The notes: generated by a model from the letters alone, not told the origin. Numbered from the stretch's first letter, positions 7,092-32,996 are shown. The stretch: DNA of 64,000 nt from an uncultured Methanosarcinales archaeon (GCA_964406185.1 CAYOQS010000003.1:114459-178458); one strand, 5' to 3'. A program made the numbers and translations.

Positions 7092-7207
7092 TTGGACGGC
7101 CATAGTGGCTTGGTTACACCGGTACCCATTCCGAACACCGAAGTTAAGCAAGCCTACGTTTGGTGCAGTACTAGCCTTTAGGTTGGGAAACACCAAAAGC
7201 TGTCCCC
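7092..7207 (+). rRNA. rrf: 5S ribosomal RNA, not linked to 16S/23S in this window
   Basis: GGCCATAGTGGC...CCGGTACCCATTCCGAACACCGAAGTTAAGC core. Terminal helix GGACGGC (7094-7100) pairs with GCTGTCC (7199-7205). Confidence 0.9.
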
Positions 7208-7227
7208 TTTTCATAATTCTCAGAAAT

Positions 7228-17269: not shown

Positions 17270-17533
17270 TCAAGTCCTCTCAAGACGCTTCTTCAGCTCA
17301 GGATTGATATTATGAGACCAGGTAATGCCCTTCAGGCTCACACCTATCTTGTTGCTCTCCTCAAGATAAGCAAGGATCTGCATCAGGGTATTGTGGTTTA
17401 CCTGTTTAGGCAGCCGCTTCTTCAGCTCAGGTATTGACAGGTAAGCGCCTTCATCGTCCTCAAGGACCGCCTCGACCATCAGAATGGTGTTGAGTGTCGG
17501 TGAGTGCAGGTTGGCAGACCCCTTCTTCGTCAT
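17270..17533 (-). CDS. small winged-helix-like protein (87 aa), function unknown
   Basis: Compact ORF with an LSIPELKKRLPKQVNHNTLMQILAYLEESNKI helix-turn-helix-like segment. Confidence 0.45.
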   Translation of the reverse strand: MTKKGSANLHSPTLNTILMVEAVLEDDEGAYLSIPELKKRLPKQVNHNTLMQILAYLEESNKIGVSLKGITWSHNINPELKKRLERT

Positions 17534-17631: not shown

Positions 17632-17945
17632 GGGCAGGCTAGGCCGGGAGGTTAGTCGTCTCCTGTAACCATCAACCGACTTACGTTGGGGCTGAAGCCT
17701 GGAGAGAGGCATGTCCAGGATCTTCTGGTCTTGGTCTGGACGATGATACTCTGTCCCCAGGGACTGGCCTTACCGGGAACCGGGTCACGCGCAGAATATC
17801 TGCGGCAAAACGCCTGCGCGCCCGAGAGGCTGGGAACAGAGCAGCCCTAACCGGCAAGGTCGGTGCTCTGGGGGTAGCGGAGTTGAGGAAGGATCAGGGT
17901 CCACCAGCAGGCCTTGGGCGTGCTCATCTTCGGGTGTGCCTGCCT
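17632..17945 (+). ncRNA. signal recognition particle RNA (archaeal 7S/SRP RNA)
   Basis: 5' GGGCAGGCTAGGCCGGGAGGTTAGTCGTCTCCTGTAACC pairs with 3' GGGTGTGCCTGCC. Helix-8-like CTG-GGAA-CAG-AGCAGCC with a GNAR tetraloop. About 314 nt, followed by a T-run. Confidence 0.85.
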
Positions 17946-17965
17946 TCTCTTTTTTCTTATTTTTC
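17946..17965 (+). terminator. oligo-T termination signal after SRP RNA
   Basis: TTCTCTTTTTTCTTATTTTT. Confidence 0.5.
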
Positions 17966-18061
17966 CGTGAAAAATACGGTGCTTTATAAATAAAAGTATA
18001 TAATTTATAAAAAAATAAAGAAAAAAAAGCAAACTTTTAAATATGATAAGGTGCCCATATT

Positions 18062-18178
18062 ATGTTTGCGATGCCATCTAGCAAAATGAATGGACACTGG
18101 CACAACAGGAATATAGACATTTTGCTAAATGGAGATGTCTTCACCGGCGTCTTTACAAAATACCCAATTATGCGCTAA
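18062..18178 (+). CDS. candidate small ORF (38 aa) at the head of the RelA/SpoT-like transcription unit
   Basis: ATG lies about 22 nt after TATA TTTTAAATAT (18035-18044). Product MFAMPSSKMNGHWHNRNIDILLNGDVFTGVFTKYPIMR. Mutually exclusive with 18129-18380. Confidence 0.25.
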   Translation: MFAMPSSKMNGHWHNRNIDILLNGDVFTGVFTKYPIMR

Positions 18179-18380
18179 CAAAGCCCTACGCCAAAACGGA
18201 CGGGGACTTTGTTGCGCGGGCTATCAATTCTGGTGTAACAAGGTCCTTGTCATAGTGCTAGGCTTCACGACGTATAACACCAACCACGGCAACAAGAGCA
18301 AGGGAAAAGCAATACAAGAGGAAACCAAAAAAAAAACGAAAGGAAACGGAAATCCAGGTGTTGAGAGATGGAGGCAATAG
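18129..18380 (+). CDS. candidate small ORF (83 aa) whose stop overlaps the RelA/SpoT-like start
   Basis: Stop TAG 18378-18380 overlaps ATG 18368 by 13 nt (coupling-like). Cys cluster CCAGYQFWC and a Lys-rich tail. No homology recognised. Confidence 0.3.
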   Translation: MEMSSPASLQNTQLCANKALRQNGRGLCCAGYQFWCNKVLVIVLGFTTYNTNHGNKSKGKAIQEETKKKTKGNGNPGVERWRQ

Positions 18381-19210
18381 CAGAAGCAGAGCAGCTCTAC
18401 CCACAAACGGTGGAGAGAACAAGACCCAGACTGGTTCCAGTCCCTGACACAGACCGAGCGCCCACAATAGATGCAATCCTCGGCTACGAGGTCAAGGTCG
18501 ACTTCAGCGACGCATCCAGACGACATGACCAGCTAAGCGAGCTTGTAGAAGAAGCAAGACAGGCACTGTCCGCAGACCCTAACACAGACACTACAAGGAT
18601 AGAGCAGGACATAGAAGCAATACTTCTCGACGATGCAAAAGGACTGGACGACTTCGCAAAAGTGTTCGTCAACTCCCTGATGCCCGAATACGAGGACAAA
18701 GCAGGCACCTGCGGACTGGCAGGTATGAGATATCACAACACATACTCAGGAGATATGGGCCTTATGCTCTTCAAGACAAGGATAAAACGAGGGAGAAACA
18801 CGCTGGCAAAAGCTTTCAGGAAATCTTGTTTCGCTCAGGAAGATGCAAGAGAAATGCTCGCCAAGTACGAACAGGATCCTGACAACAAAGACCAGCACCC
18901 ATACCAGCTCGAACCGGAAACCCAGACCGTGAGATATAAGATAGGCGACACCTCGGCAGCAAGAGCCCTTTTCGAGACAGAAGACGGAATAGAGAGGATG
19001 AGGGCATGGATATACCTGCACCCAGAGATGGAAGTGCTTTCAGAAGAGGACAAGGACAAGCCCACCTACAAGGCAAGACACCTGCAGATCAGATACCAAG
19101 GAGTCGTCAGAGAAGTCCAGCTCATGACAGCAGAAGCGGAAAGGATATCCATAGACGACGGATACCACGGACCCCAGAAGAACGACGTTGCATGCCATGC
19201 CCGACGCTGA
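18368..19210 (+). CDS. RelA/SpoT (RSH) synthetase-fold nucleotidyltransferase, small-alarmone-synthetase/toxSAS-like
   Basis: Four ordered blocks match RelQ-type SAS by eye: TRIKRGRNTLAKAFRKS, IGDTSAARAL, TYKARHLQIRY, REVQLMT..GYHGPQK. There is also an acidic ~110-aa N-terminal extension. Confidence 0.6.
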   Translation: MEAIAEAEQLYPQTVERTRPRLVPVPDTDRAPTIDAILGYEVKVDFSDASRRHDQLSELVEEARQALSADPNTDTTRIEQDIEAILLDDAKGLDDFAKVFVNSLMPEYEDKAGTCGLAGMRYHNTYSGDMGLMLFKTRIKRGRNTLAKAFRKSCFAQEDAREMLAKYEQDPDNKDQHPYQLEPETQTVRYKIGDTSAARALFETEDGIERMRAWIYLHPEMEVLSEEDKDKPTYKARHLQIRYQGVVREVQLMTAEAERISIDDGYHGPQKNDVACHARR

Positions 19211-19281
19211 GGCAACCCACAAAATTTTTTCTTAACGTATCCCATCAACATTTATAAAGAACCGGCTTTCTTAATACAGGC

Positions 19282-20088
19282 ATGGAACTCACACCAGAAC
19301 AGCAGAAAGCCATAGAACAACAGAAAGCGCAATGCATATTCTGCCAGATAATAGAAGGAAAAGTTCCCAGCAAGAAAGTCTATGAAGACGCTCGGCTTCT
19401 GGGGATCCTCGACATAAACCCTGCTTCCGGAGGGCACGTGCTGCTCATGCCTAAAGAGCACTACCCAATCATGCCACTCATACCCCCCGACACATTCAAA
19501 CACATGTTCTCAAAACTCAAAGATATAGACCAGTGCGTGAAGCAAGCCCTGCTCTGCAAGGAGACAACAGTCCTGATAGCCAACGGAGCGGCAGCAGGGC
19601 AGCAAAGCACACACTTCATGCTCCACATAATACCACGCGAAGGAGGGGACGGACTGGACATGCTCGACCTCAAAGGGAAAGAAGCACCAGAAGAAGAGAC
19701 AAAAGAAGTTATGGAAAAGACCGCGCCAGCGCTGAAAGCCATACTAGGCAGAAACCTCCCGGCTCTGGGTTATACAGAAGCCACGGGCGATGCGGGGGGT
19801 GAACCAGAAGTGCCGCAGGACCTAACAAAAGAACAACTCCTCCAGATAATCGACAGCAACCCCCAGCTGAAAGACATAATAACGCAAAAGCCGGACCAGT
19901 TCAAGCAGCTGGTGCCCAGGCACCCACAGCTGAGCCAGATATTCAAGAAATTTGACCTCGACGATATAATCAAGGAAGTCACAGGAAAAGAGCCTGACAT
20001 GCCCGACAGCAAAGTTCAGGACCCGGAAAAAAAGGAGAAAGAAGGGAAGAAGCCAGGCAAGCTGAGCCTGGACGGAGCGCTGAAATGA
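19282..20088 (+). CDS. HIT-fold protein with degenerate histidine triad and NPQL-repeat (STI1-like) C-terminal extension
   Basis: CIFCQIIEGKVPSKKVYED..GHVLLMPKEH. The triad region reads GQQSTHFMLHIIPR, with the middle His replaced by Met. TATA 19251-19258 lies 27 nt before the ATG. Confidence 0.75.
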   Translation: MELTPEQQKAIEQQKAQCIFCQIIEGKVPSKKVYEDARLLGILDINPASGGHVLLMPKEHYPIMPLIPPDTFKHMFSKLKDIDQCVKQALLCKETTVLIANGAAAGQQSTHFMLHIIPREGGDGLDMLDLKGKEAPEEETKEVMEKTAPALKAILGRNLPALGYTEATGDAGGEPEVPQDLTKEQLLQIIDSNPQLKDIITQKPDQFKQLVPRHPQLSQIFKKFDLDDIIKEVTGKEPDMPDSKVQDPEKKEKEGKKPGKLSLDGALK

Positions 20089-20762
20089 AAGAAGGATGCA
20101 AGCACTGCGAAACCCTGGAAAAAAAGGAGAACATCCTATATGAGGATGATAAGTTCGCAGCACTGATACCAGCGAAACCCGCTACAAAAGGCCACATCCA
20201 GCTAATATCCAAAGAGCACGCAGAGACCATGCAGGATCTGGACGGCAAAGATGTCGAGCACGCATGGTACGCGGCCAGCTTCACAGCAACAGCGCTGTTC
20301 GAGAACCTCCAGGCGCAAGGCACCAATCTCATCGTCAACACAGGCAGTGAGATGAAGAAAGGAGGGCACTTCCACATAGACGTGCTGGCAAGGTACAACG
20401 AGGACGGGCTAAACCTCCTCTGGCAGCCCAAAAAGCTGGGAGAGGACGAGATGAAGAAGTTACAGGCAAAGATCAAGGACAAGTGCGACATGATAGGCGT
20501 CGAGAGGAAAGAGAAAGAGGTCCTCGACCTTGACAGAAAGCCTGAAAAGATAGAATCCGGTGAAGAGAAGGCTCCTGAAGACTGGAAGAAGGAAACTGGC
20601 GAGGAAAGCCCGAAGGAAAAGAATAGCAGGAAGACAGAAGAAGGAGCAGATGAAAAAAAGCCGAAAAAGCAAGAAAAAGAGACCGGAAAAACAGGCAAGA
20701 AGAAAAAGAAGAAAGAACCAGAGGAAAGCTACCTCATCAGGCAGCTAAGGAGGATACCTTAG
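20085..20762 (+). CDS. HIT-fold protein (HxHxD variant) with long Lys/Glu-rich tail
   Basis: KGHIQLISKEH..GGHFHIDVLAR. ATGA overlap with the upstream HIT gene. Tail of about 90 aa is K/E-rich. Confidence 0.7.
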   Translation: MKEGCKHCETLEKKENILYEDDKFAALIPAKPATKGHIQLISKEHAETMQDLDGKDVEHAWYAASFTATALFENLQAQGTNLIVNTGSEMKKGGHFHIDVLARYNEDGLNLLWQPKKLGEDEMKKLQAKIKDKCDMIGVERKEKEVLDLDRKPEKIESGEEKAPEDWKKETGEESPKEKNSRKTEEGADEKKPKKQEKETGKTGKKKKKKEPEESYLIRQLRRIP

Positions 20763-20789
20763 TGCTAAAACCGACATCGCAGAACCATC

Positions 20790-23453
20790 TTATTCTACAA
20801 GGATCGCAGGCTTGCCAGGCAGGGCATTTCCGGCCTTAGAGCTGTCGCTGTCCTCAGCCTTCACGACGACAACCTCTGCACCAAACTCATCTGAGAACAT
20901 ATTCTTATTCTTATCAAGGGCGTCAAATTCCTCATCCTGGGAAGTGACAGTATCAGGTATCTTAGAGCGGTCCTTGACAAGCCTCGGCACCAGTTTTGAT
21001 ATCTCCTTGCCATGCTCCCCATCCATACAGGACTTGATCAGAGCACCCACATCATGGGTCTCCTCAAGACCCTTCTTCAGCTTACATACAACATCATACT
21101 TCCAGGCATCAGCCACCAGAAAGGTTATACGCTTAGGATCCTCTATCGAGGCCAGTTTCAGTATGTCACGCACATCACCTATAGAAGCGCGCGCGGCGCC
21201 CTCAGAAGCCTCAGCAGCAAGATCTATCCTGCTCTCATCAGGCTCTGGCCAGGACTCAAGAGAGACAAACGGCTTGTTGCCGATCATCTCCCAGAACTCC
21301 TCAGCAAGATGAGGGCATACAGGAGAGAGCAATCTTATGAAAGACTCCATGTCCTCTTTTGAGCAACCCTCCTCGACGCAATAGAACATCTCCTTGAGCT
21401 TGATCACCGCAAGATTATACCTGAGATCAAGGATGTCGTCGGTATACTCCTTTATCAGACGGTTGAACCTGCTCTGGCCCAGAGCGCTCATCCTACCCGG
21501 CTTGAAGTCCTGGACACAAGAGATTATACGGTTCACGAAACGCAGGCTGCCATTGATGCCTGCTTCACTCCACTCCAGGTCCTTGTCAGGAGATGCTATC
21601 GATACCAGGAAAAGCCTGGCTGTATCGATGCCATGAGTCCTGCTGATCTCCTCAGGCAACACCACGTTCCCTCTGGATTTTGACATAACAACGCCTTCCT
21701 TGTGCAACATGCCCTGATGAAATACCTTTGAAAACGGCTCGTCAAACTCTATCATACCCATATCCTTAAGGGCCTTGGTAAAGAAACGAGCGTAGATAAG
21801 ATGCATGCAGGCATGCTCAGCCCCACCGATGTAAAGGTCCACAGGCATCCAGTAATCGGCCTTGGCAGGTTCAAATGGTTCATCACTGTTAAGGTTATCA
21901 GTATATCTCAGGAAGTACCAGCTTGAATCAAAGAAAGTGTCCATGGTGTCAGTCTCACGACGGGCAGGCTTGTTACACTTAGGGCATTTACACTTCACGA
22001 AAGACTCGCTGGTCTCAAGAGGATTACCCTCACCGAACTTGATATCATCAGGCAACAGGACAGGAAGCTGGTCGTAAGGAACAGGCACAGCACCGCAATC
22101 ATCACAGTAGATTATCGGAATCGGAGTGCCCCAGTAACGCTGCCTGGAGACAAGCCAGTCACGCAGCTTGAAATTAGTTGTAGCCTTGCCCCAGCCCTTC
22201 TCCTCTGCAAATTCAGTTATGTCAGCCATCGCGTCATGGTTGTCCATGCCATCGAAATCACCGCTGTTCACAAGCACCCCGCGGTCCACATAAGCCCTGG
22301 CCATCCTGGCAGGGTCAAGCTCGTAATCCGGTGGAGATATCACCACCCTGACAGGCAGGCCATACTTCCTGGCAAACTCAAAATCGCGCTGGTCATGAGC
22401 AGGAACAGCCATCACAGCCCCTGTACCATACTCGTAAAGCGCGTAATCCGCAACCCACAACGGGCACTTTTCGCCAGTAAAACGATTCATGAAATACTTG
22501 CCCAGAAACATGCCTGTCTTAGGCTTACCCTCTGCAGTACGCTCGATACTGGACATCGATTTTACCTGCTTTACGAAGTCCTTGGCATCCTTCTCCAAAG
22601 GGGTATCCTTAGTTAATTCAGTTACGAGAGGGTGTTCTGCAGCAAGGACAAGGTATGTTATGCCATACACAGTATCAGGCCTTGTGGTGAACGTGCTTAT
22701 CGTCTGGCCTGTCTCAGAACCATCCTCATTGACGATCTTAAAGTCTAGCAGAGTGCCTGTACTCTTGCCAATCCAGTTCTCCTGCATGATCTTAGTTCTT
22801 TTAGGCCAATCAATTCTACTATGCCCTTCCAGAAGTTCATCAGCATATTTTGTCTGTTTTATGAACCACTGTTCTATGTCTCTAGCCTCGACTTCAGTAT
22901 CCTCGTGCCTCCAACACTTACCGTCATGAACCTGCTCGTTAGCAAGTACTGTATTACACTTAGGACACCAGTTTACGGATGATGATTTACGGTATACAAG
23001 CCCTTTCTCCATGAATTTCAGGAAGAAGAACTGGTTCCACCGGTAATAATCAGGATCAGATGTCCTGAGCATCCTGTCCCAGTCATAGCTCAGGCCGAGC
23101 TCCTTCTGCTGCCTGATGAAATTCGCTATCGAGCTATCGGTATACTCCTTTGGCTGCGTCCCTGCCTTTATCGCGGCGTTCTCAGCAGGCAGGCCAAAAG
23201 AATCATAACCCATAGGGTATATAACATCAGAACCGGTCATACGCTTGAATCTGGCATAGATATCACCTATAGTGTAGTTGAAAGCATGGCCCATATGCAG
23301 ACCTGATCCTGACGGATAAGGAAACATCTCAAGCACATAGAACTTATCCTTGCCTGACTTAGTAGCCTGGAATGCCTTGGCATCCTCCCATCTCTTCTGC
23401 CACTTCTTCTGGACCGAATCGAAATCAATCTTAATGTCTGCCATGAAAACCAC
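20790..23453 (-). CDS. leuS: leucyl-tRNA synthetase
   Basis: HIGH-type SGSGLHMGHAFNY, KMSKS-type VMSKSRGN, Zn Cys clusters, editing domain. Start may be ATG 23444 (MADIKIDF). Confidence 0.9.
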   Translation of the reverse strand: MVFMADIKIDFDSVQKKWQKRWEDAKAFQATKSGKDKFYVLEMFPYPSGSGLHMGHAFNYTIGDIYARFKRMTGSDVIYPMGYDSFGLPAENAAIKAGTQPKEYTDSSIANFIRQQKELGLSYDWDRMLRTSDPDYYRWNQFFFLKFMEKGLVYRKSSSVNWCPKCNTVLANEQVHDGKCWRHEDTEVEARDIEQWFIKQTKYADELLEGHSRIDWPKRTKIMQENWIGKSTGTLLDFKIVNEDGSETGQTISTFTTRPDTVYGITYLVLAAEHPLVTELTKDTPLEKDAKDFVKQVKSMSSIERTAEGKPKTGMFLGKYFMNRFTGEKCPLWVADYALYEYGTGAVMAVPAHDQRDFEFARKYGLPVRVVISPPDYELDPARMARAYVDRGVLVNSGDFDGMDNHDAMADITEFAEEKGWGKATTNFKLRDWLVSRQRYWGTPIPIIYCDDCGAVPVPYDQLPVLLPDDIKFGEGNPLETSESFVKCKCPKCNKPARRETDTMDTFFDSSWYFLRYTDNLNSDEPFEPAKADYWMPVDLYIGGAEHACMHLIYARFFTKALKDMGMIEFDEPFSKVFHQGMLHKEGVVMSKSRGNVVLPEEISRTHGIDTARLFLVSIASPDKDLEWSEAGINGSLRFVNRIISCVQDFKPGRMSALGQSRFNRLIKEYTDDILDLRYNLAVIKLKEMFYCVEEGCSKEDMESFIRLLSPVCPHLAEEFWEMIGNKPFVSLESWPEPDESRIDLAAEASEGAARASIGDVRDILKLASIEDPKRITFLVADAWKYDVVCKLKKGLEETHDVGALIKSCMDGEHGKEISKLVPRLVKDRSKIPDTVTSQDEEFDALDKNKNMFSDEFGAEVVVVKAEDSDSSKAGNALPGKPAILVE

Positions 23454-32667: not shown

Positions 32668-32996
32668 TAGGACTGCAATTTGACAATTGGAAACCCGGCC
32701 TTGGCCGTGTTGCTAAGGAAAGTCCGCCCACTTATGTGGCCACTCACGGAAGTGAGGCAGGGAAACCTGCGGCAACAGCTCAGAAACGAAACCCCCTCAT
32801 GGGAGGATGATGGACGCGAAGTCCCGGGCGACCGGGACGAGATAACCTCCGGACGTTCCTTGAGGAAAGGATTAAACGGCTAGCCCTGGCCTGTGCAAGT
32901 CTTTACGACGCTAAGTATAATGTCAAAACAGACCATCGCACTCGAGCTTGACTCTTGTGTTCGGGTCTGACAGAAGGCGGCTTACTGCAGTCCGAC
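32668..32996 (+). ncRNA. rnpB: RNase P RNA (archaeal type A-like)
   Basis: P1 GGACTGCA (32670-32677) pairs with TGCAGTCC (32986-32993). CR-I GGAAAGTCCGCCCAC and CR-V ACAGAAGGCGGCTTAC. T-run follows. Confidence 0.85.

Follow-up and report, generated by a model that had tools for sequence, protein, structure and literature searches.

Do archaea make alarmone-type nucleotides, and can archaeal ribosomes use a leader open reading frame (ORF) to regulate the gene behind it? Both questions become testable at a locus in a 64,000-nucleotide stretch of DNA from an uncultured Methanosarcinales archaeon (GCA_964406185.1 CAYOQS010000003.1:114459-178458; hereafter the window, with positions counted from its first letter). 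There, an ORF at 18368-19210 codes for a 280-amino-acid (aa) protein with the synthetase fold of the RelA/SpoT homologs (RSH); it is preceded by small ORFs and followed by two genes of the HIT family, all on the plus strand. An earlier reading made from the sequence alone, called here the original prediction, had taken the RSH gene, an overlapping small ORF and the two HIT genes for a candidate archaeal alarmone or toxSAS-like module. The ORFs, TATA boxes, T-run, HIT overlap and 13-nucleotide (nt) overlap that it listed are all present in the sequence.

We find that the new element at this locus is the leader of the RSH gene, which combines a conserved leaderless upstream ORF (uORF) with competing helices and is dedicated to that gene. 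The reading that we favor, with a probability of roughly 0.6, is that an RSH pyrophosphokinase stands under a translation-coupled, attenuator-like leader; we infer from the sequences that the uORF is translated, that the ribosome chooses the leader fold and that this choice affects RSH output.

A diverged RSH-fold protein

The 280-aa protein is acidic (isoelectric point 5.05). A search of 5.8 billion clustered proteins gave just two close relatives, both unnamed or annotated as "hypothetical". An exhaustive profile search gave 14 representatives of the RSH family, and a word search with the profile of A3, an alignment of 16 family sequences, added one protein. The motifs of A3 are R-x-K-x(7)-K, D-x(4)-R, (TG)Y-x-A-x-H, V-R-E-x-Q-L and D-x-Y-H. 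When the PDB was searched with the A3 profile by hmmsearch, 3l9d (E = 5e-9), 6fgk (1.8e-8) and 2be3 (1.9e-7) were matched, as were 5f2v and 5ded, over a range extending to 5e-7. RelA, Rel and SpoT structures matched the profile too, with E-values up to 1e-3. In the alignment with solved small alarmone synthetases (SAS; E = 5e-9 to 2e-8), the first block pairs tRvKrgesllaKvgrk with RVKsfesivnKlmRK, and the three following blocks pair DlsalR with DIAGvR, tgYkavH with GYRSlH, and vrElql with aEIQIRT. The four RSH blocks that had originally been aligned by eye thus reflect real homology.

A structural model agreed with the profile. The AlphaFold (AF2) model built from the 16 sequences had a predicted local distance difference test score (pLDDT) of 87.3 and a predicted template modeling score (pTM) of 0.81. 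Its top 39 Foldseek matches in the PDB were all RelP, RelQ, SAS1, SAS2, RelSeq or SpoT structures (best E = 6e-5, probability 1.0), with target-normalized TM-scores of 0.46-0.59, and its best matches in a viral structure library were a phage RelA/SpoT-family protein and Tas1. The RSH nucleotidyltransferase fold that had been predicted was therefore recovered, and by profile and model ORF 18368-19210 is an RSH synthetase-fold protein. An AF2 model from three sequences was dropped, as its pLDDT was 53 and its Foldseek matches were meaningless.

Residue conservation was counted over 28 family members. K140, K148, D194, Y234 and H238 are invariant (28/28), H267 is kept in 27, and R138, E249 and Q251 are each kept in 26. 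In the alignment with SAS enzymes, these positions fall on the catalytic and substrate motifs: RxK...K, the Mg-binding Asp, the G-loop Tyr and His, and ExQ. Because these active-site residues persist while overall identity within the family is only ~20%, the protein is probably an active, strongly diverged single-domain RSH pyrophosphokinase of the SAS type. As a protein, it is a new, very divergent member of a known superfamily.

The family falls into two types, the window protein being of type A. PF04607, whose gathering score is 27 bits, gave sub-threshold matches in nine of the 16 A3 members, and the type A relatives peaked at 22.5 bits. Type B proteins, which stand at the same chromosomal position, pass this threshold (32.6 and 38.7 bits) and are annotated RelA/SpoT; for most of these positional orthologs (P0017-P0040) the PF04607 match is precomputed. 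The match that the original prediction proposed as a check was thus obtained for the type B orthologs and not for the window protein itself, and Pfam-based surveys miss part of RSH diversity.

A conserved promoter and a leaderless uORF

Relatives of the locus were sampled with an alignment of HIT1, the first of the two HIT proteins, at one genome per species (192 found, 80 loci retrieved), and the leader statistics rest on 18 distinct leaders (alignment A6). A promoter made of a transcription factor B recognition element (BRE) and a TATA box (GCAAAC-TTTTAAATAT; 18029-18044, with TTTTAAATAT at 18035-18044) is kept in all 18 loci, where its consensus is cGAAAnnTTTAWATA. No other TATA-like box was found between this promoter and the RSH start in any of them, in line with the claim that the RSH gene lacks a separate promoter and relies on the box at 18035. 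The spacer from leader to RSH gene is as short as ~30 nt in some loci.

Farther upstream, past the terminator T-runs of the signal recognition particle (SRP) RNA gene, the segment 17965-18011 holds a small hairpin (CCGTGAAAAATACGG) and then two palindromic TATA-like boxes ~20 nt apart (TTTATAAAT at 17983 and ATTTATAAA at 18003). This arrangement, ~40 nt upstream of the leader promoter, is kept in most relatives and might serve as an operator or as an additional or divergent promoter.

Each of the 18 loci has a single ATG 28-37 nt past the TATA start and 31-35 nt downstream of the BRE/TATA promoter, a spacing that implies a leaderless mRNA, and this ATG is in frame with a TAA located in a strand of the leader called a (see below). 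In the window, the resulting uORF has 35 codons (MPSSKMNGHWHNRNIDILLNGDVFTGVFTKYPIMR*; 18071-18178), and an in-frame ATG at 18062 extends it to 38 aa (18062-18178). The frame is open in all 18 loci, with no in-frame stop, whereas the other two frames contain 53 and 46 stops. The uORF has 11 different lengths, from 28 to 42 codons, and since all of them are in frame, every insertion or deletion has preserved the frame. The peptide itself is weakly constrained: single-difference codons are synonymous in 460 cases and non-synonymous in 998, and the differences at the three codon positions number 1999, 1700 and 2309, respectively. At its C-terminus, I-M/W-R nearly always precedes the stop codon.

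Directly before the RSH start lies a Shine-Dalgarno (SD) block (CCAGGTGTTGAGAG; 18354-18367) that is near-identical in most loci, indicating that translation of the RSH ORF begins behind a long 5′ leader. The second small ORF in this region, an 83-aa frame on the plus strand at 18129-18380, overlaps the RSH start by 13 nt and had been read as a toxin-antitoxin-like coupling. It was rejected as a gene, being cut to 36 codons in locus L002 and having a different extent in L001, and its apparent amino-acid conservation follows from the conservation of the leader RNA at the nucleotide level. The proposed coupling is thus broken in relatives, and it is the other small ORF that is conserved.

Two competing helices at the uORF stop codon

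Helices were identified with RNAalifold and pair counting, with shuffled and slid pairings as controls. Hairpin P1 (18080-18088 pairing with 18118-18126) lies inside the uORF. The share of paired cells is 91.5% (37-50% for slid controls), and five of its nine pairs show compensatory double changes. A second hairpin inside the uORF, P1b (18132-18139 pairing with 18146-18153), is present in the minimum free energy folds of most loci and has weaker support than P1 (69.5% of cells paired, against 34-48% in slid controls). In the internal loop of P1 (18088-18118), the top of the hairpin is bordered by conserved GA dinucleotides (5′, ...ATG-AAnn-GA...; 3′, ...A-GA-C). The pattern resembles a kink-turn or L7Ae-type motif, but the conserved uORF residues MNG and xD are encoded by these very bases.

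Strand a (GCGCTAACAAAGCCC; 18172-18186) holds the last uORF codon and the TAA (18176-18178), which stands at the same position within the strand in all 18 loci. Strand b (CGGGGACTTTGTTGCGC; 18201-18217) is common to two helices, a:b and b:c, as strand c (AACAAGGTCCTTG; 18237-18249) is its alternative partner. Over the 18 sequences, a:b is paired in 88.7% of cells (slid controls 37-50%) and b:c in 92.3% (slid controls 38-50%), with double changes in four of the 13 pairs of b:c. The mean energies of the isolated hairpins are nearly equal (−19.6 kcal/mol for a:b and −20.4 kcal/mol for b:c). A strand complementary to the SD block and an a:e helix, both proposed by eye, were dropped for want of RNAalifold support.

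Rfam 15 contains no curated family or riboswitch matching 17940-18420, the best E-value being 0.16, for chance microRNA models. The profile of the leader found one match per RSH locus and no other in 1.33 Mb of related loci. Scanning metagenomes for the a+b pattern returned 44 matches, four of which have the full leader context, each then followed by an RSH ORF; the remaining 40 lack the uORF context and a downstream strand c and were judged to be chance. Leader and RSH gene therefore co-occur one-to-one, in ~22 lineages and never apart, and the leader fronts both types A and B.

Proposed control of the RSH gene by uORF translation

The favored reading draws on the protein's fold and catalytic residues, on a promoter and an open frame that are both conserved, on two helices that compete and on a leader that accompanies this gene one-to-one. 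Transcription from the BRE/TATA promoter at 18029-18044 would give an mRNA with a ~300-nt leader that starts practically at the uORF ATG. Strand a would be covered by a ribosome that arrives at the uORF stop or pauses there, and b would then pair with c; with no ribosome at this stop, a:b would form first during transcription. Leader translation and RSH expression would thus be coupled, in the manner of bacterial leader-peptide attenuators. Candidate outputs of such a switch are termination by a factor that needs free nascent RNA, a change in RNA stability, ligand or protein binding to P1/P1b, and translation initiation.

Several results count against this proposal. The b:c helix dominates at equilibrium in 13 of the 18 sequences, so a switch would have to be kinetic, although a:b is transcribed first. 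Folding of the 18 full leaders gave no consistent change in SD accessibility, the mean unpaired fraction of the SD being 0.28 in the free leader, 0.31 when a ribosome occupied the stop and 0.30 when the 5′ end was blocked. Reading the leader sequences revealed no oligo-T tract after a:b or b:c, and none of the 18 uORF peptides has a run of one amino acid, unlike classical amino-acid attenuators. The shuffled and slid helix controls only partly remove the kinship among the sequences. As for the enzyme, the 280-aa protein searched singly against Pfam, NCBIfam and the PDB gave nothing useful, and PF04607 was not matched.

A further step is possible, one that we hold tentatively and would not bet on: the leader may be a genuine ribosome-sensing archaeal attenuator that puts an alarmone-synthetase gene under translation status and has been retained while the A and B cassettes were exchanged. 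If true, this would be a stringent-response-like circuit in cis, in a lineage without a RelA-type ribosome sensor. A literature search found no established archaeal leader-peptide attenuator and no account of this leader.

A clade-specific insertion at a fixed chromosomal site

The window belongs to an archaeal chromosome, and its closest relatives are metagenome-assembled genomes (MAGs) of the Woesearchaeota/Nanoarchaeota type. In ~22 Woesearchaeota-type lineages, the RSH gene occupies one fixed chromosomal site. The gene order in all family contigs long enough to show it is a tRNA-synthetase gene, the genes for an RNA-binding protein, a signal-peptide peptidase and an 87-aa protein, the SRP RNA gene, the RSH gene, HIT1, HIT2, sometimes an HD-protein gene, and then the leucyl-tRNA synthetase (LeuRS) gene. 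The expected conservation of the neighborhood was therefore found, as the same syntenic block throughout. The upstream boundary of the locus is the SRP RNA gene (17632-17945, plus strand; Rfam RF01857, 135 bits, E = 1.3e-30), which is likewise present in relatives.

Members of the RSH family occur only where HIT1 shares 57% identity or more with the HIT1 of the window, and an iterated hidden Markov model search found no member in the remaining retrieved loci. The HIT1-HIT2 pair occurs in ~55 further loci without an RSH gene, and HIT1 directly follows the SRP RNA in two of these (L027 and L067). On this comparison of gene orders, the RSH gene and its leader are a clade-specific insertion beside an older HIT pair in Woesearchaeota-type DPANN archaea. 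Within one clade of tiny, probably symbiotic archaea, an RSH lineage has thus been stably inherited and has kept its catalytic residues.

The RSH protein evolves much faster (21-56% identity) than HIT1 (57-77%) or the 87-aa protein (72-81%), and the window protein is only ~18-23% identical to type B. Gene and flank trees were both built by simple neighbor-joining, the flanking proteins being 55-81% identical. The gene tree splits A from B with 100% bootstrap, whereas the tree of six flanking proteins groups L005 (type A) with L020 (type B) at 100% and L003 (type A) with L021 (type B) at 98%. Because the types interleave on the flank tree yet split completely in the gene tree, this comparison suggests that A and B have been replaced in situ, as a cassette behind one leader. 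Such an exchange would be the sole hint of mobility at the locus.

Type B was seen in L015, L016, L017, L020, L021, L022, L024, L107, L119, L134 and L136. These proteins (for example L015:6056-6952 and L024:6080-6949) have GDxxGxE in place of the canonical DxxGxR, so that the adenine-contacting Arg is replaced by Glu, and they are extended at the C-terminus by a conserved segment, QLVIVGNSV...VPNPxQxYxLVVP. In three lineages, an additional ORF stands between RSH and HIT1: L005:4904-5632 (242 aa), L011:6229-6768 (179 aa, also in L012) and L023:3556-3924 (122 aa). The three inserted ORFs start 14-64 nt past the RSH stop; no similarity among them was detectable, and none matched Pfam.

Other genes of the block also vary. 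Around half of the relatives have a dGTPase-like HD-domain gene (PF01966 and HD_assoc) between HIT2 and LeuRS (for example L001:8361-9437, L002:8448-9494 and L011:8253-9296), which is lacking in the window, where HIT2 and LeuRS are just 27 nt apart (20762-20790). The window's class-Ib tRNA-synthetase gene (PF00579; 14455-15591, minus strand) is 26-31% identical to the syntenic gene of all RSH-carrying relatives and 69% identical to its counterpart in the more distant L067; it could be a displaced paralog or have a different specificity (Trp versus Tyr). LeuRS identities are bimodal, at ~54% and ~77%. The gene for the 87-aa protein (17270-17533, minus strand) is the most conserved of the block (72-81%), has no family assignment and is always divergent beside the SRP RNA gene. 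The other RNA genes found in the window are those for RNase P RNA (32670-32993) and 5S rRNA (7092-7208), and ARAGORN detected no tRNA gene in the whole 64 kb.

The HIT1-HIT2 pair

An oligo-T tract (19225-19230), read from the sequence, follows the RSH gene, and HIT1 (19282-20088) has a separate BRE/TATA (TTTATAAA; 19251-19258) 31 nt before its ATG. In all loci, RSH-free ones included, the HIT1 TATA box stands ~24-32 nt before a leaderless ATG. HIT1, a neighbor that is probably outside the module, matches PF01230 (cut-off 21.5 bits) with E = 9e-17 and 62 bits; HIT2 (20085-20762), whose ORF overlaps that of HIT1 by 4 nt, matches it with E = 2e-11 and 44.6 bits. The HFMLHIIPR segment of HIT1 and the HFHIDVLAR segment of HIT2 both align to FHLHLIPR of 3imi, a canonical HIT protein. 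The triad HFMLH has lost the central nucleophilic His and HFHID the third His, so that neither protein has an intact triad. The original description of the pair, as HIT-fold genes with a promoter of their own and two degenerate triads, was accurate.

Genomes of the Woesearchaeota/Nanoarchaeota type commonly carry the pair (HIT loci L025-L094), and this degeneracy is kept across ~80 loci. In ~72 HIT1 orthologs, the central position of HxΦxH is M in 43, L in 25, and I, V or A in a few, the nucleophile being missing in all; the center of the HIT2 triad is highly variable. HIT1 ends in an NPQL/HPQL-rich helical tail, whose NPQ/HPQ segment gave weak STI1-like or ubiquilin-like matches, and HIT2 in an acidic, Lys/Glu-rich tail that closes with E-S/N-Y-L-I/V-K/R-Q-L-R/K-R-I/M/V-P (SYLIRQLRRIP in the window). 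From these features, HIT1-HIT2 look like a DPANN-wide pseudo-HIT pair and not like alarmone hydrolases. A central His in HIT2 (triad at 20367-20381) is found only in RSH-carrying genomes (13 HxHxD and one ExHxD), whereas V, T, S, C, M, I and other residues take its place outside the RSH clade. Since it reflects a single clade and one evolutionary event, this correlation is a hint at most.

Alternative explanations

In the toxin-antitoxin or defense module originally envisaged, the RSH protein would be a toxSAS-type toxin neutralized by the upstream peptide or by the HIT proteins, an arrangement that now appears improbable. It fits the difference in evolutionary rate between the RSH protein (21-56% identity) and its neighbors (57-81%), the interleaving of two deeply diverged types on the flank tree, as if cassette-swapped, the unrelated orphan ORFs just downstream of RSH in three lineages (L005, L011/L012 and L023) and the small conserved ORF upstream of the gene. 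Yet the overlapping 83-aa ORF is not conserved, and the uORF peptide, weakly constrained, has a sequence shaped by RNA pairing. Every carrier has the gene at the same housekeeping site, among tRNA-synthetase genes and with no mobile-element or defense context, and PADLOC gave no match for the RSH protein and uORF peptide, which speaks against a toxSAS-like or mobile module. The tRNA-modifying toxSAS are typically basic, whereas the window protein is acidic. The HIT pair, finally, is older than the RSH gene and has a separate promoter; these two facts also bear on the idea of a signaling unit in which the RSH enzyme makes a nucleotide that HIT1 and HIT2 bind or degrade. In its favor, every locus of sufficient length has the genes side by side in one orientation, and the HIT2 central His is kept only within the RSH-carrying clade (13 HxHxD, none outside). 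We nonetheless give this unit little credence, because HIT1 has a BRE/TATA of its own, lacks the nucleophile in all orthologs and is separated from RSH by unrelated genes in three lineages; the pair also exists in the ~55 RSH-free loci, including the two where it directly follows the SRP RNA, and the HIT2 correlation amounts to one event. Moreover, HIT enzymes attack the 5′ alpha-phosphate rather than a 3′-pyrophosphate. The HIT proteins thus do not hold up as the partners that they had been taken for.

Two further alternatives concern the parts of the favored reading itself. The leader could be an independent gene that lies upstream by chance, makes a small protein or a dual-function small RNA and leaves the RSH gene unregulated: a promoter, a conserved ORF and a highly structured RNA all belong to it, and the SD-accessibility modeling found no output mechanism. 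This seems a poor bet given that leader and RSH gene are never apart in ~22 lineages, that no promoter lies between them and the spacer can be as small as ~30 nt, and that the leader is kept before both RSH types. A catalytically dead or repurposed RSH fold, for example a binding protein, could be suspected from the window protein's escape from Pfam, from the fast evolution of the family and from the Glu that replaces the Arg of DxxGxR in type B. We doubt it strongly, because the positions for ATP/Mg and for acceptor stacking are invariant or nearly so in 28 sequences at ~20% identity. A probably active RSH pyrophosphokinase controlled through its leader remains the explanation that we prefer.

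Comparison with known systems

The only structural neighbors of the window protein are single-domain SAS of the RelQ/RelP kind (5dec, 5ded, 6ewz, 6fgk, 3l9d and 2be3), with which it shares the RSH synthetase fold and the order of the motifs RxKxxxSxxxK, D..G/A.R, GY/Y...H and ExQ. It differs from them in being ~11-19% identical, matching no Pfam family and having an archaeal host. At its N-terminus it is longer by a region of ~130 aa, in which a CGxxG motif is specific to the family, and it has ExQLMT in place of ExQxRT.

Older surveys reported only sporadic archaeal RSH cases (PMC3153485), and the original prediction had likewise called such enzymes uncommon in archaea. This view is outdated, as RelA/SpoT annotations are reported in 41.7% of Woesearchaeota MAGs (PMC8407392). 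The annotated DPANN proteins (PMC8407392; type B, P0017-P0040) stand at the same genomic position, behind the same leader, and it is the type A protein of the window that is distant from them in sequence and annotated hypothetical.

Like FaRel, FaRel2, CapRel, PhRel and Tas1, which are toxSAS (PMC7229694, PMC11782079), the window protein is a fast-evolving stand-alone RSH domain with small neighboring ORFs. Unlike them, its locus has neither a conserved overlapping antitoxin nor a defense-model match, the site is a fixed housekeeping one and the protein is acidic. HIT1 and HIT2 share with HIT/Hint proteins (PF01230) the HIT fold and nucleotide-binding framework. They depart from these and from the GalT branch (HxHxQ) in their HxMxH and HxHxD triads, in their conserved non-HIT C-terminal tails and in being always paired.

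Leader-peptide attenuation is a textbook bacterial mechanism, and in tnaC what happens downstream depends on a ribosome that is held at the stop codon. The leader described here shares with trpL and tnaC a short 5′ ORF, mutually exclusive helices and a ribosome position geometrically able to choose between them, and its resemblance to tnaC extends to the placement of the uORF stop codon. The leaderless mRNA has a counterpart in the mycobacterial attenuators with leaderless polycysteine uORFs (bioRxiv 10.1101/834739). What sets this leader apart from the bacterial attenuators is that no regulatory amino-acid run, recognizable terminator or SD-sequestering helix was found in it, that its host is an archaeon, and that the gene it would control codes for an RSH enzyme instead of a biosynthetic operon.

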